64,000 nt of DNA, taken from assembly GCA_000004695.1 (NCBI GenBank), contig CM000153.2, positions 3,264,001-3,328,000 on the forward strand. The letters run 5' to 3'. Positions 13,201 to 29,200 of this stretch are shown piece after piece. Position 1 is the first letter of the stretch; each line of letters starts with the position of its first letter. Made by a program: the position numbers and the translations under genes. A model generated the notes under the pieces. It saw only the letters and a program-made list of their open reading frames with translations, searched no databases and was not told the DNA's origin. Source of the DNA: Dictyostelium discoideum. Its lineage: Eukaryota.

Positions 13201-13828
13201 TTATTCAGTTGGATAAATTTCAAAATATTCAATGGCATACTTATGATGAATGATTTATTTTTAAATTAGTACAACTTTTTTTAATCAATGTAAAAATAGT
13301 GAATAATATAATTATTATAACTTACTTTTCTAAGTTCTTCACGTGTAATACATTTGTCATCATCAGAATCCACATCTTCAAACATTGAGTTGGCCAAGAC
13401 TTTAGCTTGAGCTTCATTTGAACCACAAGTAACGAAAAATTGTCTGGCCTCATCCCAAGTAATTTTATTATCTTTATTTGAATCAGCCTATAAAATTTTA
13501 TTTATTTTTTTATTTTTAAAAATATTAAATTTCAATTACTATGTTTTTATGGGAAAGATTAATATTTATATATTTAATATATATATATTACATTAAAAAT
13601 AGTATCAACGAATTTTTTTAAACAATCTTCAGCTTTAATAATATAATCTACAAGTAATGCAGCTTTAACTTCATTAACCGAAAGTTTTCCATCTTTGTCA
13701 TGATCAAATAGTTCAAATAATGAATTGGTTGCCAAAGTTGGGTTTGGGTATTTGCATTTCTTGTACATGTCATTAATTTCTTTCTTTGAAAATTGGTTAT
13801 CACCATTTTTATCAAATGATTTAATCAT
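13201..13828 (-). CDS. EF-hand calcium-binding protein (4 EF-hand loops; Dictyostelium Cbp-like); exons 13592..13828, 13326..13487, 13201..13239 (last exon uncertain)
   Basis: [24 protein letters not shown]...[42 protein letters not shown] | [54 protein letters not shown] | [12 protein letters not shown]. Canonical 12-residue loops [36 protein letters not shown] and [12 protein letters not shown]. Donors GTAATA and GTAAGT. Confidence 0.6.
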
Positions 13829-14322
13829 TTCATTCTTTAATTTAAAAATATAAAATAAATTTTTTTTTTTTTTTTTTTTTTTTTTAAACGGTTCTTATAT
13901 TTTTAAGAACCCACACCAAAAATAAAAAATATTATAATTCCCATTTTTTTTTTTTTTATTTAAATTATTTTTTCCAAATTATATTCATTTTCTAATTTTT
14001 TACCCATTTAAAACAGTTTTCAAATAAGGTAAGAGTGTTTAAACTTTTTTTTTTTTTTATTTTTTTTTTTTTTATTTTTTTTATTTCCTTATATTGATTT
14101 TGTTTTTTTAAATTTAATTATTATTTTTTTTACAAATTGATTTTTTTTATTATTTTATTTATAATTATGTTGAATTTATGATTTTATATAATTTTATAAT
14201 AACAATCTTAACTTCAACACTTTAAATCTAAGCACAAAACCCAAAGTTAGAACTCCAGCTACCTAACAGTTATATATATATTAAAAAAAAAAATAATTAG
14301 AATTTAATTATTAATATAAATA

Positions 14323-14712
14323 TTATATAGATATATTATATTTTTTGATCAAAAAAAAAATAATAATAATAGTAATAATAATAATAATAATAAAATATAT
14401 GATACATACTAAAATCTCTTTTGAACTTATTACTCTTAAAAATACAGATACTAAATATTGAACTCTATTTGAATTTTCTAAATTCTCTTCCACTATTGGT
14501 TTAAATCCTTTGATTTTAAATGCTAATAGTCTACCATCAAAATTTGGTTGTGCAACTGATGATTCCAATACAATATAAGGTATGTAAAATATTGTTGGCT
14601 CATCATTTTTAGTTTCTTCACCATTATAACTAAAAATTTCAAAGTTATCAACACTGATTCCATAAATTCTCAAAAATGCAAGACTTACAAAGTTATCAAC
14701 ACTATTTGTCAT
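14323..14712 (-). CDS. Hypothetical protein, 5' exon(s); likely true start ATG at 14712 (MTNSVDNF...), GTATGT donor near 14411; 3' end not resolved
   Basis: The ORF track gives 14323..14733, but the first 7 residues come from an alternative start inside the repeat array. Translation is MTNSVDNFVSLAFLRIYGISVDNFEIFSYNGEETKNDEPTIFYIPYIVLESSVAQPNFDGRLLAFKIKGFKPIVEENLENSNRVQYLVSVFLRVIS. No homology recognised. Confidence 0.3.
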   Translation of the reverse strand: MTNSVDNFVSLAFLRIYGISVDNFEIFSYNGEETKNDEPTIFYIPYIVLESSVAQPNFDGRLLAFKIKGFKPIVEENLENSNRVQYLVSVFLRVISSKEILVCIIYFIIIIIITIIIIFFLIKKYNISI

Positions 14713-15051: not shown

Positions 15052-15333
15052 TTACAAGTAGATAGTTGAATATTCATCGTCATCGTAATAAAGGTCAGAA
15101 TCATATGTTGATTCAACACTTGACAAACTATTTATAGAATCTGATAGAGATTGTATTGTTGTTTTAAATGATAAATTATCCTTTCTTAATAATTCCATTT
15201 CTAATTTTAATTTTTTAATTTCTTGAAAAATTTTATCCTCTTGTTTTTCATTATTTTCTTTCATTGAATCAATTTCTTTATTAATAGAATGGAAATCATT
15301 TTTTAAAGATGTGATTACTTCTTTTAATGACAT
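15052..15333 (-). CDS. Hypothetical small coiled-coil protein (93 aa)
   Basis: MSLKEVITSLKNDFHSINKEIDSMKENNEKQEDKIFQEIKKLKLEMELLRKDNLSFKTTIQSLSDSINSLSSVESTYDSDLYYDDDEYSTIYL*. Heptad-rich, with an acidic C-terminus, flanked upstream by an (ATT)n microsatellite. No homology recognised. Confidence 0.35.
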   Translation of the reverse strand: MSLKEVITSLKNDFHSINKEIDSMKENNEKQEDKIFQEIKKLKLEMELLRKDNLSFKTTIQSLSDSINSLSSVESTYDSDLYYDDDEYSTIYL

Positions 15334-15341
15334 TATTATTA

Positions 15342-15355
15342 TTATTATAATTATA

Positions 15356-15454
<99 letters not shown>

Positions 15455-15455
15455 G
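15342..15455. repeat. (ATT)n / (TTA)n intergenic microsatellite of about 114 bp, followed by a (TATTTATT)n-like tract 15470-15535
   Basis: Direct read. Confidence 0.9.
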
Positions 15456-15816: not shown

Positions 15817-17308
15817 TTAAAATTTATCAAGATTTTTAATTCTGCCACCCATTTGAATATCAACAGTGGAACCTTGAGGTCTTAATTCAATGTTATTTGT
15901 ATTTTTTTTTGAATTTCCATTCTTCTTCTTTTTAATTAAAACAATGGCAACAACAATAATTGCAATTAGTGCAAGACCACCTAGAATTGGACCAATGATA
16001 ACACCAATATTTGTTTTCTTTTTATTTTCAGAACCACAATCATCGCCATCATAATCTTCAACACATTGGCATTGACCAACTGTAGTATTACATAAACCAC
16101 CATTAAAACATGAAACTGAACAACTAACACCACTACAATCTATACCTTCATAACCTTGAGTGCATGAACATTCACCAACTGTTGTATTACATGAACCACC
16201 ATTTAAACATTGTGGAACTGTACAATCCTTTGTACCACAATTATCACCATAAAAGTCATTAATACATTGACATTGACCAACTGTTGTATTACATGAACCA
16301 CCATTTAAACATGAAACTGAACAACCAATACCACTACAATCTATACCTTCATAACCTTGAGTGCATGAACATTCACCAACTGTAGTATTACATGAACCAC
16401 CATTTAAACATTGTGGAACTGTACAATCCTTTGTATCACAATCATCACCATAAAAGCCATTTATGCATGAACATTCACCAACTGTTGTATTACATGAACC
16501 ACCATTTAAACATGAAACTGAACAACTAATACCACTGCAATCTACACCTTCATAACCTTGAGGACATGAACATTCACCAACTGTAGTATTACATGAACCA
16601 CTATTTAAACATGAAGCTGAACAACTAATACCACTGCAATCCGTACCTTCATAACCTTGAGCGCACGAACATTCACCAACTGTTGTATTACATGAACCAC
16701 CATTTAAACATTGTGGAACTGTACAATCTTTTAATTCACAATAATCACCATAATGATCATTTATACATTGGCAACCAGTGAGTGGATTACAAGTACCCCC
16801 ATTTAAACATTTTGTATCACAATTTGCATTTGGTTGACCAATGAATTTAATTGATTGTACTTGATTACCATATTTCATTAATATAGTTCTATTAAATAGC
16901 TGAGGTGACAATGAAACTGTTATTTTTGGTAAAACATCATTTGCAATTGATTTACTCTCATCACCAAATAATATTAATTCAATTCTAACTCTTGTATTAT
17001 TATTAAATGTTATTGAATATATTGAACTATCGAAACTAGGATCAATAATAAATTGATCTTCATTTGCTGGATTTTCAATTGTTAATGTAACAATTCTAAT
17101 TGCGCATTGTCCAACTTCTGAATTAATATTATTTTCAAATAATTTATAAATTGAGTTTGACATTGGATTTGGTTGAAATAATTTACTAATTATTGAAATT
17201 GAACCAATCGAAGTTTGACCATATATTGTATAAATATCTAAATATGAACCTGTTACTAATATAGATGCTGTCTGATAGAATAGAATTATTTAAAAGTTAA
17301 TAATAATG

Positions 17309-17391
<83 letters not shown>

Positions 17392-18948
17392 TGATTTAAT
17401 ATAATATTACTTACAATATCATCAATACCATCAGAGTTATAATCACCAATATCAATAGCCGCAGCATAGCCATTAATTGACATTTTTGAACAATCACCAA
17501 CTTGATCTTTTAAATAAATTGGATTTGAAGCATAATTTTTATTATTACCATACAAAATGGTGAATGGGATGTCAGTGTTACCACTGAATAAAAAATCTGC
17601 AAATCCATCATTATTTATATCCCCCAATCTAGGAGAAAAAGCCCAGCTATAGATGTTGCCAACAACTGCTATAACCAAACCATCCGATGGATTTAGATTT
17701 ATACTTAATGTTGTTGTTGGTGGATATTCTGTTTTACCCAAACCAAAAAAGCTATATAGTCACCCCCCGAAGTAAGTCTTGTAAGAATCTAAAATTATTT
17801 AATAAAATGTAAAAATAAGTATAATAACAATAAAGAATAATAAAGAATAAGAATAATCAAAAAATAATAAAGAATAAATTACACCAAAATCATTTAGTCC
17901 ATCATTATTAAAATCTCCAAAAGCATTTGGATGAACATTATTATTTGTTGTGCAACCTAAAAAGCTGAAACTGGTACCTTTGACACCATCATAAACTGGG
18001 ATATATGGTGAGGTAAAAGGGCCTCTACTACCATAAATAATATCGATTGCTATCTGTCCCCTATTTATCATTATATCACCAATCCCATCATTATTCATAT
18101 CATAAGGATAAGCCGCATATGAATTGAAATTATTAATTAAAAAACCATTACTCCCATTTAATGTTGAAGGGTCAAATTCAAACTGTGAATTAACTTGAAA
18201 TTTACCACCGTTTATACCAAATATCATATATGAAATTGGTGTTCCTGAAGTTGCATAAGTTCCTATACTTGCAGAGACCTAAAAAAAAAAAAAAAAAAAA
18301 AATATGTGTTAATACCCATGTGAATACCCCTTTTAAAAACAAAATAAAAAAATAAAAAAAATCTGTACCTACAAATAAATCTTTAATTGAGTCACCATTG
18401 AAATCAATGATTGATCTTACAAACCCAAATGCAATATTAGAGGACGAAACGTGAGAAATATAGAAACCATTATTACCATTCACTGTCGAAAAAGTAGAAG
18501 GTGATATAATTTGATCAGTACCATAGATAACACAAAGTTTTCCTGGTATAATATGTAAAAAAAGAGCAATATCGTCAAACCCATCATTATTTATATCACC
18601 AACAGCTATATTATTCATTCGAACAGTAGCATTTAAAAAAATAAAACCATTTGAACCGTTGATCTTTGATATGTCTGTTTGAAAATTAAAATTACTTGCT
18701 AATGGCCCATAAAATACATATAGTCCTTCTGAATTTATAGCATATATCAAATCATCATTACCATCACCGTTCAAGTCTCCATGTGCAATTGAAATTAAAC
18801 TTCTGCCTTCTGTTATTAAAAACCCATTTATTGAATTAATTTGAGAAAATGATGTTGGAAAAATTGAAATTACAACATTGAAATTATAATTTAAAATATA
18901 AAATAAAAATAAAATATAAAAAAAGTTTACCTTATATTTTTCTGTCAT
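15817..18948 (-). CDS. Type-I transmembrane adhesion-receptor-like protein: signal peptide, roughly 7 FG-GAP (integrin-alpha-type beta-propeller) repeats, 7 tenascin-type EGF repeats, TM helix, short basic tail. Four exons (minus): 18373..18948, 17883(or 17885)..18278, 17415..17728(or ..17751), 15817..17271
   Basis: FG-GAP signatures across exons: IAHGDLNGDGNDDLIYAI...YVFYG, IAVGDINNDGFDDIALF...VIYG, DFNGDSIKDLF, AFGDFNNDGLNDF, LGDINNDGFADFLFS...ILYG and DIGDYNSDGIDDI|TASILVTGSYLDIYTIYG. The terminal exon has 7 near-identical units CLNGGSCNTTVGECSC.QGYEG.DCSGISCS.SCLN, then TM IGVIIGPILGGLALIAIIVVAIVLI and KKKKNGNSKKN... The exon 2/3 junction is ambiguous: all three frames carry stops between 17741 and 17788, leaving either a GTGTAA phase-1 donor plus AACAG|AA acceptor, or an unrecognised micro-exon. 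Intron 3 contains an (AAT)n run. Confidence 0.7.
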
Positions 18949-19530
18949 TTTTTGTTAAAAAGGTAACTTTTTTTTCTGATTTTGAATTTTATCGAAATGT
19001 ATTAAATGCTTTTTTTTTTTTTTTTTTTTAAAAAAAATAAGGTCCGTTTTCTATTTTTTACACAAACGACGGTTTTTTTTTTTTTTGGCGAAAAAGATAT
19101 TTTTAAAAAATAAAATCTTTTATTTTGATTGAATTTTAAAATAATCACATGATAATTTCTTTAAATTTTAATATTTAAAAAAAAAAAAAAAATAAAAAAA
19201 AACAAAACTTTTTAAAATAATCATTTTAATTTTAAAACAAAAAAAAAAAAATTATATATAACTTTTGAAAATAAAAAAATAATTTTTTTTTTAATAAAAC
19301 CAATTCAAAACATTATTTAAATTAAACCAAGATAAAAAATTTTTAAAATAGATTTCAAATTTTTATAAAATAATATCCAACAATTTTTGACATTCGATCG
19401 TTTGCCAGATTTTCAAATAATATTTTTTTTTTTTTTATTTTTTTTTTTTTATTTGTTTTCTAAAAAATTGGAAAATATCTTCATCCATAAAATTTGTTAT
19501 TTGATTAAATTTAATTACAACTTTATTTAT

Positions 19531-19911
19531 TTATTTACAAATTTTCTTTTTTAATTTTTTTTTTTTTTTTTTTTTATTGATAAAACCTTTACATTTCTTT
19601 AAATAAAAACCATCATCTTCTTCAATTTCTTCAGCCCATTCAAAGATTGCCTCTTCAGAGATAACATCATTTTCATCACAAAAATCTTGAATTTTAAAGA
19701 TAAGATCTACCATACTATCTTCTCTTGAGAATTTAACCAACAATAAAACTGGTAAAATACTTGTTAAACAATCTAAACCATCTCTATCATAAGCGAATTT
19801 CAAACCATTGATTTCTAATTGAATATTCTCTAAAGGTAATTTCTCTATAATACCACGTCTAATTGTATCACCAACTTCACGATGAAATTTAACTGAATCA
19901 GGTTCAATTGG

Positions 19912-20007
<96 letters not shown>

Positions 20008-20217
20008 GTTGTTGTTGTTATTGTTATTGTTACAATTTGAACCTGTCATACAAATTACTTGAACACCTGGAAGATCATGCCATCTTGATGATTGAATATA
20101 TTCTTTAATTTGTGATGCATGTGCACAACAAAATACAAATATTTGTTGTACTCCTGATGCTGCTAAAAATTCTAATGTATAATCTAATAATGGTATATTA
20201 ACTAATGGTAATAATGT
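19531..20217 (-). CDS. eIF2B-epsilon-like ORF: N-terminal nucleotidyl-transferase fragment plus C-terminal W2 (AA-box) domain joined by an Asn tract of about 45 residues. It lacks the central left-handed beta-helix region and has no in-frame ATG before the NT-domain fragment. Truncated paralog or pseudogene-like remnant; first ATG is at 20049.
   Basis: Open frame from acceptor TTTAAATAG|ACA (20217): [62 protein letters not shown](N)45[118 protein letters not shown]. From memory, the N-terminal part matches human EIF2B5 [38 protein letters not shown] and the C-terminal part matches ENIVLEINSLKYAYN. No upstream coding exon is detectable in 20218..20317 before the T67 run. Confidence 0.45.
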
Positions 20218-20414: not shown

Positions 20415-21075
20415 ATGATTCAAAACGCATTTTTATATTTAAAGATAATCATTCTGATAGTAATAACAAATAATGTAAACTCACAATTAATTGATATTTA
20501 TTTCAGTAATAGTTATGATGATTTAAATGGTAATGGCACCATATCAAACCCATATCAAAATTTATGTTTACTTAATCAAATTTTAAATTCAAATAATAAT
20601 AATAATAATAATAACGATAATATAAATAGTTCAATAATAATAATAAATATTGATTATGGTGATTACAATTTAAATTGTTCATCATTTTTAATAATAAATA
20701 ACTTTAATAATATTTCATTCATACCTTATAAATCAAATAATAATAATAATAATAATGAAATTGTAAATTTAAATAATATAACCACATTAAAGATACTTAA
20801 TTCAAATTTAGGATTTGATGGGTTAATAACAATAATAACGAATCAAATAGAGATTTCATATAGTAGAATCATATTCAACAATGGATCAAAACTTTATTTC
20901 AACATAGAAAGATATGAACATTCAACACACTTTCAATGCTCAAATATTACATTTTCAAATTCAACATTTCTTTTAAAAAGAGATGAAAACTACCTTGTAT
21001 CAGAATCTAGTTCATTCGAATTTTTAGATTCATCTTTAGAAAATATATCTTTAATATTTAATAATAACCTATATT

Positions 21076-21153
<78 letters not shown>

Positions 21154-24100
21154 GTATTGGTAATAGTAGTAGAATTAGTAGTGGTAGTAGTAGTAGTAGT
21201 TATTTTTTATCAATGTTTAATTGTAATGCAACATTGATTTATTTCAGGATGAATGGATTTGGAAATGTTTTAATTAATAATTCATTATTAAATGATATAT
21301 CAATTAGAATAGAAGGTAGTTTTATAGTTAATATTAATAGTTCAGATATTTATGCAACTTCATTAGATCCACTTTTCATGGTGGCGAATATGGATATAGA
21401 AAGATCACTTTTAAATATAATAAATTCAAATATTTACTATTTAAATGATTCTGAGTATCCTTTAGCAATTATAGTTAAAAATAGTTTACTAAATATAAGT
21501 GGTTGTAATATAAATGGAAACTTTAAAAGAATTTATCCTCAAGCATTAATAAATGTTGCTGGTACTCCTTCATCATCATCATCAAATGATAGTAGTAGTG
21601 GTAGTAGTAGTAGTAGTAGTTGTATAGATAATGAAGCTTTATTAATTTTAGAGAATTCAAAGATTTCAAATTTTAATTCACCAAATAAATTTATTTTTTC
21701 AATTTGTTCAACTATTTTTATAAATAATATTACATTTTATTCAAATTCATACTCAACATTTTTATATATTAATAGTAGTAGTATTGTTAATTTAGATAAT
21801 ATTATAATGAAATGTGATGATATGAATAGATTTGAATATTTATTTTTAGCACTACCATCATCGTCATCATCATCATCATCAAATATAACAATTAATAATG
21901 TTTATATGAGTTGTGTTGGTATGTTTGAATTTGAAAATTGTAGAATTGAAATTTCAAATTTTAGTTTAGAATCATTTTCAAAACCTTCAACTATTAGGCT
22001 AAGTCATTCAAGTGAATTAATAATTAGGAATGGTGTTTTTATTTCAAGTATATTCAAAATTAAATCTTTTATGTTTTATTTAGAGCAGAATAGTAGGTTG
22101 GTCATTATAAATTGTCAATTTATAGATAGCACTACCAATATTATTTTCTCAAGAAATTCAGAAACAGTTTTACAATATTCAAATTTTTCAAATATAATAC
22201 CATATGGTGGTGGCAGTGGTGGTGATACATTTAATTCAAATTCAATTTTCTACTTTTCAAAAAGTTTATTACAAATTGAAAATTGTAATTTTAATCAAAC
22301 TCAAACTTTATCATCCCTATTTTATATGGAATTTTCAGAGAATGTAATTATAAAATCAACAAGATTTGAAAGAGTTGGTGATACTATTTTAAAAAGTTAC
22401 TTTTCAAACAACAATATTATCATTGATGATATTTATGTAGTGAATTGTAGTACTACACAGAGTGAGTTATTCTTTTTAACGTTTAATGAAAATGTTGTAA
22501 TTGGAAATTCAACTTTTAAAAATAATCATGGTATTGGTTATACTTTATTTACTATTAATGGTTGTTTACATTTTGAAATTAGTAAAACAATGATTTCAGA
22601 TAACTCTTTCTCATCAATTTTTAAAGAATCAAATTCAAATGCCATTCTACTAAATTCAATAATCTCAAATGGTAATACAGTTGATGATTTTTATAAATCT
22701 TCAAATTGTTCTTCCCTTTCAATTGATACTTTTAATTTTACAAATAATTATGTTAATTCAATATTCACAATAAATAAAATCACATCCAAAATTCAACTTT
22801 CAAATATTATAATTACAAATAATTATTTCACTAAAATAATTACAAAATTTAATCAATCTATAGTTGAAATTAATAATTTAACATTTATAGACAACATATT
22901 AATTGCACCTCAAAAATATGATTTGGATGGTGGTGGTGGTAGTAGTGGAGGTGGTGGTGGTGGTGGTGGATTATTCTTTGAAAATTGTCAAGTTATTTCT
23001 AAAGGTTTACAAATTTTAAATAATGAAATTTCAGTTAATTTAATTAATTTAAATGATTCTATATTATTAATTTCAGATGGTTTATTTGAAAATAATCAAA
23101 TTTCATCAAATTTTATTCATTCTGATTTTTCAACTGTTGCTTTATTTAATACAAAGGTATTGCATAATCAAGGTGGTGATGGTGGTGGTTCAACTTTATT
23201 TGTTATTCATAATTCAAATATTAATATAAGTGATTGTGAATTCTCTTTTAATAATCTTTATAAAAATGGTATGGGTTCAATTATTAATTTTGATAAATAT
23301 TTAAATAAATTTACTTATTTTCAAATTGAAAATACTTTATTTTCTTTCAATATTGCTAAATTTGGTCAATTATACTTTTCAGGTTATCCAAATGATCAAG
23401 ATGCATTTACAAATAGTAAAAATACATTTTCAAATAATACATTAATTTCAAATCATGCATCTTCACAAGGTGGTGCTATCTTTACAGAAAATTTCATTTT
23501 CTCTTTAAATATTTCAAATATTTTAAATTCAAATCATTTCGATAATAATACTTCATTATGTGGTGATAATTTCTCTTCAAGTATGTATTATTGTTTTTAT
23601 TTTTATTTTTATTTTTATTTTTAATAATTCTAATTTTTTTTTATTTTTTTTTATTAGGTTTAAAAGAAATTATTTTCATAGAAACTAATGGTACATTTTT
23701 AGTAAATGGAGTTGGAACTATTATCAATTATAATGCAGTGGATTTTTATAATAATGTATTCACCACATTATCTTCACCAATTCAAATTAGTATTACAAGT
23801 TTATCAAATAATGAAACACTGGTATTCACTGAAATGATTATTGGTGGTAAAGGAAGTTTTTTACATACTTTTATAGGACCACTTTATGAAAGATTTAAAA
23901 TTGAATTAAATTCCATACCATACTATTCAAATGTTTATTTAACACTTGGTGGATGTTTACCATTTCAATATATGAATAATTTAACATGTGAATATTGTCC
24001 AATAGGTTCATCATATAGTAATTCAATAGGTCAATGTTTTAAATGTAATCCTAATGCAGTGACATGTGTTGGTTCATTTGTAAATGTAAATACTGGATAT

Positions 24101-25240
24101 TATATGATCGATAATGAAATCTCAATGGTTGAACGATGTGCAAACGATATGTGTCTCTCAAATAATCAATGTCAATTTAAATATAGTTCAGGAGATTTAT
24201 GTTTCAGTTGTTTAGATCCAGACTCATCAACACCAACATTCATAGCAGCTAAACATGGAATTAATTGTTGTTCCCAATTTAAAGTATGGTTAATTGTACC
24301 ATTATTATTATTATATTTAGTTTCAGCATTAGTTCTCTCAATAATCAAATTAAATTTATTCACAACAATAATTGGACCAATAATAGTATTCCTTCAAATT
24401 AATTCAGTAGTTTTCTTTTCTTATAATGGTATTTACATTTTAGCATTCTTTAGAGTATCATTAGATATTTTAGATGGAATTTGTATTTTCAAAGGATTAA
24501 ATCATGGAGATAAAACATTAATTATATTATTAATTATAATAATAATGTTTTTAATTTCTTCAAGTGATTGGCTTCCTTTATGGTTATTTAGAAAATTAAA
24601 TTCAAATTTTAAATTATACAATTATTTAAAAAGAAATTTAAAAAAGAATAGAAATTTAAAGAAATCATCATCAACAACTCAACTTAATTATTTTATTAGA
24701 TCAAGATGGCAATTATTTCAAATCTTTATTATTCCATTAATATTCAATTCATTTACATTGATAATACCAAAGAAAATTAAAGATCAAACATTATTATTAG
24801 TAGATTTTTCAATTTTATTTGGATCATGGCAGAGTATAATTCAAATTTTCATTTCAGTTTTAGTAATAATATCAGCAATGGTATTTTTAATATTAAAATA
24901 TCAATTTTACAGCAAGGGTAAACTAAAGTTGTGGAGTTTCATTATAATTTTAAGATCAGTTTTATTTTCAATTCTATCAATTACATCAATTTTTAGCGAT
25001 AATGAATTTTATATGCCATCGATTATTCTAATTCAAATAGTCTATTCAAGTATTTACTTGTATTTGAAACCTTTAAAAGAAAAAATTGATAATAGTAATT
25101 TTATAAATTTAATTCAAATAATTATCTTTCTTTTCGCAGATTCAAGATTATTCCAACCAATTTCTCCCCATTATCTTGGCTTAATTTTAACTATTTTAAT
25201 TATTATTTTAAATTTATTTATAATAATAAAAACCTTTTAA
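20415..25240 (+). CDS. Paralog A of tandem family: signal peptide + large Asn/Ser-rich Pmp-like (GGAI / FxxN) beta-helix-type ectodomain + Cys-rich module + roughly 9-10 TM C-terminal domain (1582 aa); exons 20415..23580 and 23658..25240
   Basis: MIQNAFLYLKIIILIVITNNVNS|QLIDIYFSNSYDDLNGNGTISNPYQNLCLLNQILNS...; ...SSQGGAIFTENFIFSLNISNILNSNHFDNNTSLCGDNFSS. Donor TCA A|GTATGT, 77-nt intron, acceptor TTATTAG|GT, giving S-LKEIIFIETNGTFLVNGVG...CEYCPIGSSYSNSIGQCFKCNPNAVTCVGS...CANDMCLSNNQCQFKYSSGDLCFSCLDPD..HGINCC, then multiple TM helices. The two ORF-track ORFs 20415..23624 and 23591..25240 are joined by this intron. Confidence 0.75.
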
Positions 25241-25562: not shown

Positions 25563-26256
25563 ATGATACATAATTTATATTTAAAGATAATCATTCTTTT
25601 ATTAATAATAAATAATAATGTAAACTCACAAATAATTGATATTTATTTCAGTAATAGTTATGGTGATTTAAATGGTAATGGCACCATATCAAACCCATAT
25701 CAAAATTTATGTTTACTTAATCAAATTTTAAATTCAAATAATAATAATAATAACGATAATAACGATAATAAAAATAATTCAATAATAATAATAAATATTG
25801 ATTATGGTGATTACAATTTAAATTGTTCATCATTTTTAATAATAAATAACTTTAATAATATTTCATTCATACCTTATAATTCAAATAATAATAATAATAA
25901 TAATAATGGAATTGTAAATTTAAATAATTTAACCACATTAAAGATACTTAATTCAAATGTTAAATTCGATGGGTTAATTAAAATCACAATAACAATTATA
26001 GAAAATGAAACGGAAATTATAAATAGTGATATATTATTGAATAATGGGGTAACTCTTTATTTTATCAAAAATTACCAACTAACCAACAGTGAATTTCAAT
26101 GTTCAAGTATTAAATTTTCAAATTCAAAATTTATTTCAAATTGGTCACAAAATGATGTATCTATTTATTTTAATTCAGATTCCAGCTTATTTGAATTTCA
26201 AAATTCTTTAGTAGAAAATGTATTTTTAAAATTTAATAATATAAAAAATTGTAGTA

Positions 26257-26287
<31 letters not shown>

Positions 26288-29200
26288 GAATGAAATTAAT
26301 TTTTTAACATTTAATAATAGTAATATCAAAGATTGTTATTTTGCAACTAGTGGTTTAAATTCAATTTTTAATAATTCTTTATTAGATGGTTTAAAAATGA
26401 ATATTGGAGCAAGTAGTATAGTAACAATTCTCAACTCTAAATTATATGCAAAACCAGATTCTATTTTAGGAACTTTTCTAATTACCAATGTTGATCAAAG
26501 TACAAAACCATCAGTTTTAAATATAGTTAATTCAAATATTTACCATTTACAAGATTCTCGTTATTCATTAATTATGCTATTTATAAATTCATTTGTAAAT
26601 ATTAGTGGTTGTACAATTGAAGGTAGGGAAACAATAGTTCAAACACCAATTGTATTAATTGGAATACCAAATAGTAGTGGTGGTGGTGGTAATAATAATA
26701 ATCAAGTGATACTAGTTTTAGAGAATTCAAAGATTTCAAATTTAATTTCACCAAAAGATTTTATCAATTCATTTAGTTCTACCGTTATTATAAATAATGT
26801 TCAATTTTATTCAAATTCATTTTCAACAATTATTTCATCAAGAGGGTCAACTTCTTTTAATCTTTATAATATCATTATTACATGTGATCAAAGGAATATA
26901 TTTACATCAATTATTAAAATGCCATCATCGGAAAATGATTTATATTCAAATTTGACATCTTTTATAGATTTTAATAATGTTTATATGGGTTGTGTTGGTG
27001 GATTTGAATTTCAAAATTCAAAAATCCAAATTTCAAATTTTAGATTAGAATCATCTTCAAAACCTTCAATATTTAGTTTAATTTTAAATAGTGAATTAAC
27101 AATTATTAATGCCACTTTTATTTCAAGTATATTTGATCAATCTCCTTCAATTTTTTATATTAATTCAAGTAAATTAACAGTTTTACAAAGTGAATTCAAA
27201 GATAGTACCAACTCTATTCTATCTTTATATGGTGGTTCAACAGCAACCTTTCAATCAACCAATTTTTCAAGTATAATAACCTATGAAAGAGTTCCAATTT
27301 TTAATAGTAGTTCAAGTTCATTATTTATTGAAAATTGTAGTTTTTTTGAAATTCAAACTTCAGTTTCATCATTATTCAATTGTTTTGATTGTGATAATTT
27401 AACTATAAAGAATTCAATATTTGAAAGAGTTGGTGATATCATTTTAGATTGTTTCAATACAAAACTAATAATTATTGATTCTATAAATGTTTCAAATTGT
27501 AGTTCACAAACAGGTTTATTCTATTTTTCAAATAATAGAAATGGTAGTAGTATTATCACAAATTCTTCATTTATAAATAATCATGGTATCGGTGTTACAC
27601 TATTTAATATATTTGAATCAAATTTTGAAATTAGTTCAACAGATTTAATAGATAACACATTTTTATCAATATTTGATGAATCATTTTCAAATGTAACAAT
27701 TGAACGCATTTACGTTACAGGTACAACTGGAATTTTTTATTCTGCTTTAAATTCAATATCGATTTTAGTTGATGGTTTAGATTTTAAAGATAATTATGTC
27801 ACCTCTGTATTTACTATTAATCAAGCTAATAAAATTGAATTTTCAAATATAGCAATTTATAAAAACTATTTCATAGATGGTGTAAATGTTATGATGATTA
27901 GTCTTTGTACATTGGAAATCAATAATTTTAATTTTATGGAAAATGTTTTAATTGCACCACCTAAATCAGAACAAACTAGTGGTGGCGGTAGTGGTGGTAG
28001 TGGTAGTGTTGGTGGAGGATTAATTTTTCAAAATTCTAATGTCATTTTCAATGATTTACAAATTTTAAAAAATGAAATTTCAGTTAATTTATTTAATTGT
28101 ATTAACAATACATTATTATCAATTACAGGTGGTTTATTTCAAAATAATAAAGTTTCATCAAGTTTTATTTTTTCTGAAATTTCAGTAATCAATTTAATTA
28201 GAACACATCTATTGCATAATCAAGGTGATAGTTCAACTTTATTAATGTTGTATGCTTCAAACATCAATGTGAATTATTGTGAATTCTCTTTTAATAATAT
28301 TTATCAAAATGGTAGTGGCTCAATATTAAATTTTAAAAGAAACTTGGAAACACACGAGTATTTAGGAAACTTTCAAATTGAAAATACTTTATTCTCTTTA
28401 AATATTGCTAAATTTGGTCAATTATACTTTTCAGGTTATCCAAATGATCAAGATGCATTTACAAATAGCAAAAATACATTTTCAAATAATACACTAATTT
28501 CAAATCATGCATCTTCACAAGGTGGTGCTATCTTTACAGAAAATTTCATTTTCTCTTTAAATATTTCAAATATTTTAAATTCAAATCATTTCGATAATAA
28601 TACTTCATTATGTGGTGATAATTTCTCTTCAAGTATGTATTATTATTATTTTATTTTTGTTCATTTTTTGGCCAATCTAACTTTTTTTTTATTTTTTTTA
28701 TTAGGTTTAAAAGAAATTATTTTCATAGAAACTAATGATACATTTTTAGTAAATGGAGTTGGAACTATTATCAATTATAACGCAGTGGATTTTTATAATA
28801 ATACATTAACAACATTATCTTCACCAATTCAAATTAGTATTACACGTTTATCAAATAATGAAATTCAAACTTATTCAGAAGCAATTTTAAGTGGTAAAGG
28901 AAGTTTTTTACATACTTTTATAGGACCACTTTATGAAAGATTTAAAATTGAATTGTATCTCAAACCATATTATTCAAATGTTTATTTAACACTTGGTAAA
29001 TGTTTACCATTTCAATATATGAATAATTTAACATGTGAATATTGTCCAATAGGTTCATCATATAGTAATTCAATAGGTCAATGTTTAAAATGTAATCCTA
29101 ATGCAGTGACATGTGTTGGTTCATTTGTAAATGTAAATACTGGATATTATATGATCGATAATGAAATTTCAATGGTTGAACGATGTGCAAACGATATGTG

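Follow-up and report, generated by a model that had tools for sequence, protein, structure and literature searches.

A frameshifted gene of Dictyostelium discoideum from a family of predicted FG-GAP propeller and EGF-repeat membrane proteins with a variable propeller face

A minus-strand gene of Dictyostelium discoideum encoding an FG-GAP propeller, EGF repeats and a transmembrane (TM) helix was analyzed within a stretch of 64,000 nucleotides (GenBank assembly GCA_000004695.1, contig CM000153.2, positions 3,264,001 to 3,328,000 of the forward strand; hereafter the window, with positions counted from its first letter). The gene probably belongs to a small family of type I membrane glycoproteins with a calcium-stabilized propeller that would bind ligands through a variable face, the window copy being a recently inactivated member. 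It spans exactly 18948 (start codon) to 15817 (stop codon 15817-15819), the same interval that a first-pass annotation of this DNA had delimited, and the architecture proposed there (signal peptide, FG-GAP propeller, EGF repeats, TM helix and tail) is real. As a whole, the observations of that annotation were confirmed in part and its interpretation was supported in part.

The coordinates of the gene and its parts are given in Table 1. All three introns were phase 0, had GT..AG borders and were AT-rich (6-19% GC vs. 26-33% in the exons), in a window of 21% GC. The same splice junctions, applied to the paralogue locus L001, yielded the exact translation of the annotated 932 amino acid (aa) protein DDB_G0285585 (P0004), which validated the four-exon gene model. 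An intron after MTEKYK in exon 1 was ruled out, as there was no in-phase AG. Intron 3 measured 143 bp in the window copy and ~176 bp in L001, and long (ATT/AAT)n microsatellites were located at 17290-17385 (intron 3) and 15335-15455 (3' flank). No paralogue of the propeller gene was found elsewhere within the 64-kb window.

The validated junctions give an exon 3 of 374 nt, in which the reading frame breaks. DNA alignment with L001 located a 1-bp deletion, reading TTTGGGTAAAAC in the window vs. TTTGGGGTAAAAC in the paralogue; across its GGGG the intact paralogue reads ...AFLVWGKTEYPP..., and the intact relatives all read ...DYIAFLVWGKTEYPPTTT... at this point, including that of D. purpureum at 40% identity. 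The 20 residues surrounding the lesion were conserved out to D. purpureum. A frameshift in the T6 run at 17745-17750 (...AFFGLGK...) was ruled out, because the paralogue alignment puts the lesion at the G run (...AFLVWGK...). What had been described as a splicing ambiguity at the exon 2/3 junction is thus a deletion inside exon 3, and the insertion of one G gave a full-length protein of 933 aa. Just 5' of the frameshift, exon 3 also holds an in-frame extra GGG at 17760-17768 (TCGGGGGGTG vs. TC---GGGTG in the paralogue), which lengthens the 2-3 loop of blade 5 by one Gly.

The deletion was the sole defect of the window copy; the rest of the gene was intact, and purifying selection was still visible in its downstream regions against the paralogue. 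A single lesion combined with downstream regions that still look selected suggests a very recent loss, so the window copy is most likely a young pseudogene, and we infer that the AX4-type lineage carries it as a very recent pseudogene or null allele. Given the frameshift and the early stop codon, this copy probably does not work as a receptor. The earlier proposal of a candidate adhesion or recognition receptor fits the family. Both annotated models look like work-arounds of the lesion. DDB_G0285745 (P0011, AX4 annotation) comprises 507 aa, is 100% identical, starts at a Met inside blade 7 and lacks a signal peptide; in annotation it should be regarded as the 3' portion of a gene disrupted by a frameshift. 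ACTFIT_005832 (P0001) comprises 912 aa and splices from ~17884 to ~17729, dropping 60 nt that encode 20 conserved residues, strands 2-3 of blade 5; this model of the newer assembly is an artefact from splicing around the lesion.

Two explanations would leave the gene functional. An error in sequencing or assembly, with the gene intact in the organism, would suit a change of one base in a short G run with the remainder of the gene undamaged. However, the same G3 was present in a second D. discoideum assembly (GCA_054883475.1, locus L002), which differs from the window by 24 mismatches and 13 gap openings over 23 kb, although within the gene only by one T in the poly-T tract of intron 1. Since two assemblies that differ elsewhere share the G3, a sequencing error is very unlikely; furthermore, runs of 3 or 4 bases are not error-prone, and the curated AX4 annotation likewise has no full-length model. 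Equally improbable is an unusual intron (donor TTTG|GTGTAA at ~17884, acceptor AACAG|AA at ~17729) that would remove the frameshift and give a working 912-aa receptor. A GT..AG pair in the right phase is indeed present, and the automatic annotation of the second assembly chose it (ACTFIT_005832), but the extra 60 nt have 38% GC vs. 6-19% in the true introns, the 20 residues lost are conserved in all intact relatives to D. purpureum and their removal leaves the propeller incomplete, and at 17789 the normal acceptor TTTTAG is undamaged and identical to that of the paralogue.

For domain assignment, a T-run reconstruction of the protein, differing from the corrected protein in 3 adjacent residues (FGL for LVW), was scanned against Pfam. 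FG-GAP_3 (64.4 bits, gathering cut-off 26.9), FG-GAP (43.4, cut-off 22.1), EGF_TEN (107.9, cut-off 65) and EGF_2 (84.5, cut-off 22.1, 7 stretches) all scored far over their cut-offs, as the first-pass annotation had anticipated for its propeller and its tenascin-type EGF repeats. Six or seven FG-GAP loops had been claimed; exactly seven calcium loops of the form D-x-[ND]-x-[DN]-[GS]-x-x-D were found (aa 58, 118, 182, 252, 314, 381 and 440), each with an aromatic-Gly 10-30 residues after it, the counterpart of the 3,4-loop glycine that completes the integrin calcium site (PMC3192720). In an AlphaFold2 (AF2) model of the closest intact paralogue (P0002, DDB_G0271042, 94% identical), built from an 87-sequence alignment, residues 36-470 formed seven four-stranded blades, the seven-blade propeller that had been expected (predicted local distance difference test, pLDDT, 75-94), with blade 7 closed by the N-terminal strand. 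Foldseek matches to this model included ITFG2 (3.9e-9), CRTAC1 (3e-8; 9etn, third-ranked in the PDB) and integrin alphaX (8e-5), together with BBSome propellers, aldos-2-ulose dehydratase and the AAL-2 lectin.

The corrected protein has two hydrophobic segments only, a leader (aa 9-30) and the TM helix (aa 871-895), in keeping with the signal peptide and single TM helix first proposed. The 38-aa tail, Lys-rich as noted earlier, begins KKKKNGNSKKN, ends ...NLDKF and is conserved out to D. purpureum. For the middle domain (aa 471-599), no Pfam match was obtained at E ≤ 1, and an exhaustive search with a hidden Markov model (HMM) of 1.84 billion representative proteins found it only in the family itself, with two marginal repeat proteins at E 2e-4. 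This domain was poorly modelled (pLDDT 33-65).

To compare the parts of the protein, ratios of non-synonymous to synonymous substitution (dN/dS, omega) were calculated by the Nei-Gojobori method between the corrected coding sequence of the window copy and DDB_G0285585, and propeller sites were partitioned by the strand boundaries of the AF2 model. The ratio was 1.04 for the whole propeller, 0.32 for the middle domain (about 0.2-0.3 including other pairs), 0.12 for the EGF array and 0.09 for the TM helix plus tail. Within the propeller it reached 2.05 in the 4-1 and 2-3 loops (the top loops, 89 codons, with 51.5 of 82 non-synonymous changes), compared with 0.91 in the strands, 0.18 in the 3-4 loops and 0.10 in the calcium loops. 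Synonymous divergence (dS) was approximately uniform across regions (0.05-0.09). The ratio of non-synonymous to synonymous changes differed between top and bottom loops (Fisher P = 0.005) and between top loops and EGF array plus tail (P = 6e-7), and omega in the top loops exceeded 1 for this pair (P = 0.04). The contrast between top and bottom was repeated in six further pairs (top loops 1.1-3.1, bottom loops 0.06-0.77), and was also present in pairs without the window copy, e.g. the L004 tandem pair (1.44 vs. 0.06). Among five sequences of the D. discoideum clade, 64 of 89 top-loop positions were variable vs. 14 of 188 bottom-loop positions (Fisher P = 2e-28). In the DNA alignment to L001, introns 1 and 2 were 95-96% conserved vs. 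91-93% for propeller exons 1-3.

In integrins, the 4-1 and 2-3 loops of the cage face contribute to the ligand-binding surface. The calcium end of a blade consists of the 1,2 and 3,4 loops, and the FG-GAP/cage positions are opposite (PMC3192720, PMC8023676); given the beta-meander topology and the integrin loop layout, the variable positions would fall on the face of the integrin FG-GAP/cage motif. The accumulation of substitutions in the 4-1 and 2-3 loops thus points to a diversifying ligand-binding face.

Several points weigh against the reading of a surface receptor family with a diversifying face and a disabled member. Omega above 1 in the top loops was marginal in single pairs: the three with the window copy gave P = 0.015-0.04, and the remaining four did not reach significance. 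The paralogue pairs compared are also non-independent. dS was raised in the top loops as well (0.15 vs. 0.045), such that part of the signal may come from patchy or clustered gene conversion or from relaxed constraint. Loops were assigned to faces from the AF2 model of a paralogue and the integrin convention, and AF2 confidence was low for the middle domain and the EGF stalk. The signal peptide is predicted from hydropathy only. The second assembly may derive from a related laboratory lineage, in which case the lesion would be strain-specific rather than species-wide. Finally, a full-text literature search found no paper that mentions any of the four DDB_G identifiers of the family.

The EGF array was divided by a regular expression on the six-Cys pattern (C-x3-4-C-x5-C-x4-6-C-x-C-x8-C) into eight units of 32-34 aa, rather than the seven of 31-32 aa first counted, and an NTT sequon was present in 7 of the 8. 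Tandem Repeats Finder reported periods of 99 bp (78% matches) and 201 bp (92%, 2.9 copies). The units are of two types, A (u2, u3, u5, u7; ...TQGYEGIDCSGIS) and B (u1, u4, u6, u8; ...INDFYGDNCGTKD). DNA identity was 97% for u5/u7, 93-94% for u2/u5/u7, 92% for u4/u6 and 86-88% for u3 vs. the other type A units, but 69-77% between types A and B, and 59-69% for u1 vs. the remaining units. The 90-100% identity described for all units therefore applies within the two alternating types and fails across types and for u1; the four example segments offered for it were out of register, although, once brought into register, each pair shared local stretches of 38-80 bp at 90-97% identity. The unit order of the array was the same in DDB_G0285585, and positional counterparts in the two genes were 1-4 nt apart, vs. 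2-3 nt for u5 and u7 within the gene. Shared order and positional matches indicate that most of the array is older than the paralogue split (dS ~0.08). Of the very recent expansion or conversion that had been proposed, this leaves u5/u7 as the only pair compatible with very recent duplication or conversion. Family members carried 4, 5, 6, 7, 8, 9 or 10 units, and the array is clearly labile across the family.

In AX4 the family has four members: two intact genes (DDB_G0271042 and DDB_G0285585), the window copy and the decayed DDB_G0285565. With a 632-aa query covering the propeller, middle domain and first EGF unit, DDB_G0271042 (999 aa) was 94% identical and DDB_G0285585, ~126 kb away on the same chromosome, 87% identical. 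DDB_G0285565 (P0013; ACTFIT_005806, P0010) is truncated, with blades 1-3 and part of the middle domain deleted; one model begins at an internal Met, and that of the newer assembly fuses it to a short-chain dehydrogenase gene lying upstream. The DDB_G0285585 locus has the order formin, Bax1-I, propeller gene, and two more divergent assemblies labelled D. discoideum hold a tandem family pair there, of 866 aa and 1000 aa in L004 (10001-17233) and of 729 aa and 997 aa in L005 (10001-16528). With the family exon junctions, the first L005 gene has a premature stop at codon 459; its annotated 729-aa model skips the middle domain. Strain hyper-polymorphism at this locus is not claimed, because the other D. 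discoideum assemblies were ~3.5% different even in the flanking formin gene.

Members were found in the collections searched only in Dictyostelium discoideum, citrinum, dimigraforme and purpureum, and judged by these the family is Dictyostelium-specific and confined to group-4 species. The best matches outside Dictyostelium were bacterial FG-GAP proteins (26-34% identity, E 1e-52 to 1e-14), including Nostoc, Bacteroidota proteins sorted by the type IX secretion system (T9SS) and metagenomes; no metazoan integrin was among the best 120 matches. The best of these relatives, P0014 (L003:1702-4983), has 1093 aa and a C-terminal TM helix, and appears to hold two tandem FG-GAP propellers with a Ser/Pro-rich linker between them. 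Its gene is located on a contig of 35% GC and is flanked by IS110 transposase genes, which indicates a bacterial protein; its eukaryote-like look suggests an amoeba-associated bacterium as the source. By these relationships the propeller is of a bacterial kind, presumably inherited from, or exchanged with, bacteria.

In the intact proteins, a predicted signal peptide is followed by a head in the form of a seven-bladed FG-GAP/VCBS-type beta-propeller, and the DxNxDGxxD 1-2 loop with its matching 3-4-loop glycine, repeated in each blade on one face, would stiffen the fold. The orphan domain of ~130 aa lies between this head and what would be a rigid, N-glycosylated stalk of 4-10 tenascin/teneurin-type EGF units, a glycosylated spacer that would keep the head off the membrane. 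The Gly-rich TM helix and the short conserved tail would form the anchor, with the tail as a putative cytoplasmic link. The opposite face (4-1 and 2-3 loops), hypervariable between paralogues and strains in an otherwise conserved protein, would bind variable ligands. As far as can be read from sequence and model, the intact members are candidate calcium-stabilized surface receptors, and their likeliest job would be calcium-dependent recognition of, or adhesion to, variable extracellular ligands, for which glycans and surface proteins on prey bacteria or on other cells are candidates.

A membrane receptor is preferred over two other accounts of the family. The ectodomain could act mainly after secretion or shedding, as a calcium-dependent lectin or a component of the matrix (slime sheath, stalk, spore coat) in the manner of CRTAC1 or of fungal and bacterial propeller lectins, and not as a signalling receptor. 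Its structural neighbours include the lectins BP39L, CV39L, PLL and AAL-2 and the secreted CRTAC1, and Dictyostelium is rich in EGF-repeat matrix proteins. We consider this account unlikely, as the TM helix and 38-aa tail are under strong purifying selection (dN/dS 0.09) and conserved to D. purpureum, which argues for a membrane-anchored protein with a cytoplasmic function. Less credible still is a true integrin alpha orthologue, a vertical remnant of the ancestral integrin adhesion complex that might be paired with Sib proteins. The seven-blade FG-GAP beta-propeller head is shared with integrin alpha, but the FG-GAP/cage motif that Chouhan et al. (2011) require in every blade was absent on motif inspection: there was no GAP in the propeller, FG stood before the calcium loop in 2 of 7 blades, and those positions were hypervariable. 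Calcium motifs occupied all seven blades, not the last 3-4 only. Between propeller and EGF array there was no Pfam match to the Integrin_alpha2 leg domains (thigh, calf-1, calf-2) at E ≤ 1, the pLDDT of the middle-domain model being too low for its likeness to a leg fold to be judged, and the tail, which reads KKKKNGNSKKNTNNIELRPQGSTVDIQMGGRIKNLDKF, lacked KxGFFKR after the TM helix.

Sequence searches gave the same answer. A single-sequence search of the PDB returned EGF proteins only (WIF-1, teneurin-2/3, Delta/Jagged), and a family profile run against all PDB sequences returned integrin alphaV only, weakly (whole-sequence E 2e-4), with its best-scoring stretch in one calcium-loop blade and a second, insignificant stretch of ~90 residues, vs. 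1e-36 for bacterial proteins. The restriction to group-4 Dictyostelium also stands against orthology, and a hypervariable top face fits poorly with conservation of a heterodimer interface. The propeller does not belong to an integrin alpha of the metazoan type. The description as integrin-alpha-like holds at the level of fold and repeat, and not for the GAP/cage motif, the legs, the GFFKR tail or the closest relatives in sequence, which are bacterial. The logic of integrin alpha plus beta in one chain, also proposed earlier, is an analogy and not homology, because the EGF units are of the six-Cys tenascin/teneurin type.

The receptor reading can be taken one step further, although only tentatively: the intact members and their relatives in other strains may form a diversifying cell-surface system that discriminates prey bacteria or other amoebae, in which one face of a calcium-stabilized propeller would be reshaped by positive selection, duplication, loss and changes in the length of the EGF stalk. 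TgrB1/TgrC1 are a hypervariable recognition family of Dictyostelium. If the proposal is true, the present family would be the second beside them, and an integrin-alpha-like head would be present where two surveys reported its absence from Dictyostelium.

Other genes in the window were recorded in passing. Directly upstream of the propeller gene, a small gene at 19435-20049 (-) begins with a run of ~40 asparagines (open reading frame, ORF, 19531-20049, 180 aa in the other assembly). Two adjacent large genes at 20415-25240 (+), 1582 aa, and 25563-28974 (+), at least 1579 aa, had no Pfam domains and were 82-90% identical to each other in long stretches; blastn found more similar segments beyond them in the window, and together these look like a tandem array of orphan genes. 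Just downstream of the propeller gene, a 93-aa ORF at 15052-15333 (-) is coiled-coil-like (…KKLKLEMELLRKDNLSFK…) and has no gene call in the second assembly. The next downstream neighbour, at 13201-14712 (-), encodes an EF-hand protein of 248 aa, with no functional link to the propeller implied.

Table 1. Positions in the window of the propeller gene, its exons, introns, lesion and encoded domains.
Feature	Position	Strand	Remarks
Whole gene	15817..18948	-	DDB_G0285745 plus unannotated 5' part; ACTFIT_005832 in second assembly
Exon 1: signal peptide and propeller blades 1-3	18373..18948	-	ORF; GT donor at 18372
Predicted signal peptide, aa 1-35	18844-18948	-	from hydropathy only
Intron 1	18279..18372	-	GTAGGT...TTTTAG, 19% GC
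Exon 2: blades 3-5 (part)	17883..18278	-	
Intron 2	17789..17882	-	GTAATT...TTTTAG, 10.6% GC
Exon 3: blades 5-7 (part)	17415..17788	-	holds frameshift
Frameshift, 1-bp deletion in exon 3	17737..17739	-	GGG here vs. GGGG in intact paralogue
Premature TAA after frameshift	17705..17707	-	natural splicing gives a 351-aa product ending inside blade 5
Intron 3	17272..17414	-	GTAAGT...ATCAG, 6% GC, mainly (ATT)n microsatellite
Exon 4	17271-15817	-	
Start of exon 4: final strands of blade 7	17209..17271	-	
Whole propeller, aa 36-470	18843-17209	-	including introns
Orphan middle domain, aa 471-599	16822..17208	-	predicted mixed alpha/beta, low confidence
Eight six-Cys EGF units, 32-34 aa	16024..16821	-	order B-A-A-B-A-B-A-B
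TM helix, aa 871-895	15934..16008	-	IGVIIGPILGGLALIAIIVVAIVLI; hydropathy; helix in AF2 model
Cytoplasmic tail, 38 aa, and stop codon	15817..15933	-	KKKKNGNSKK...ELRPQGST...NLDKF

Compared with known systems, the family is closest to the bacterial FG-GAP/VCBS propellers, such as Nostoc 'beta strand repeat-containing' and 'integrin alpha' proteins and T9SS-sorted Bacteroidota proteins. It shares their repeat consensus (LNGxNGF...GDxNxDGxxD...Y/F-G), FG-GAP_3 repeats and one calcium loop per blade, and its closest relatives are bacterial; Chouhan et al. likewise described calcium motifs in all seven blades of bacterial examples (PMC3192720). Bacterial proteins usually keep a G-A(-P) after strand 2, which the Dictyostelium proteins have lost, and go on to RTX, cadherin or T9SS domains, whereas the Dictyostelium proteins add the orphan domain, EGF repeats, a eukaryotic TM helix and tail, and spliceosomal introns. 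Metazoan integrin alpha, by comparison, has calcium sites in 3-4 blades only, the FG-GAP/cage in every blade, FG-GAP~Integrin_alpha2 legs and a KxGFFKR tail, none of which apply to the family. The metazoan subunit also pairs obligatorily with a beta subunit; integrin beta is absent from Dictyostelium, where Sib proteins alone are beta-like (review of Dictyostelium adhesion).

The combination of FG-GAP propeller and EGF is not unique. Paralogue 1 of Flabellula citata, a 'Type II' integrin alpha (ITGA), has an FG-GAP head and a C-terminal EGF-like domain, and Type II ITGA and the family both have a head with cation motifs followed by EGF, with a signal peptide and/or TM helix (bioRxiv 10.1101/2020.04.29.069435); the Dictyostelium proteins differ in having 4-10 EGF units and an orphan linker domain. 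Kang et al. define Type II ITGA loosely, as membrane-docked proteins with at least three FG-GAP blades, some cation motifs and a non-metazoan flanking domain, and the family has the corresponding parts (signal peptide, TM helix, seven cation-motif blades, C-terminal EGF). No amoebozoan or obazoan ITGA was among the best 120 matches, in collections searched without the Kang et al. transcriptomes. CRTAC1/ASPIC, known as cartilage acidic protein 1 in vertebrates and with UnbV relatives in bacteria, also joins an FG-GAP propeller and EGF in one extracellular chain (PMC10477339), but CRTAC1 is secreted, with a UnbV_ASPIC domain and a single calcium-binding EGF, whereas the family has many six-Cys units that are not of the calcium-binding kind, and a TM helix; UnbV_ASPIC and EGF_CA had no Pfam match in the family protein. 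The EGF units score as tenascin/teneurin-type, although the array lies in no teneurin or tenascin context. SadA shares tenascin-like EGF repeats, but has nine TM helices and no propeller. The seven-blade propeller lectins (Burkholderia BP39L, Photorhabdus PLL, fungal AAL-2/PVL) are soluble, single-domain proteins.

Adhesion and phagocytosis without integrins are, among amoebae, classically exemplified by Dictyostelium. The adhesion receptors treated in a recent review are of the Sib, SadA and Phg1 types only, Kang et al. reported ITGA as absent from Dictyostelium spp. (bioRxiv 10.1101/2020.04.29.069435), and, in the genomes of 47 unicellular eukaryotes, Chouhan et al. detected no FG-GAP protein with seven repeats (PMC3192720). 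The family has been overlooked in the literature; despite the negative results of these two surveys, Dictyostelium does have an FG-GAP head of seven calcium-loaded blades, carried on an EGF stalk and followed by a TM helix. The fast change of one face, together with the turnover of copies, pseudogenes and EGF number, makes it a testable candidate for prey or kin recognition. It also sharpens the question of what counts as an integrin alpha homologue outside animals, and provides a clear example of a eukaryotic receptor that has incorporated a propeller of the bacterial type.

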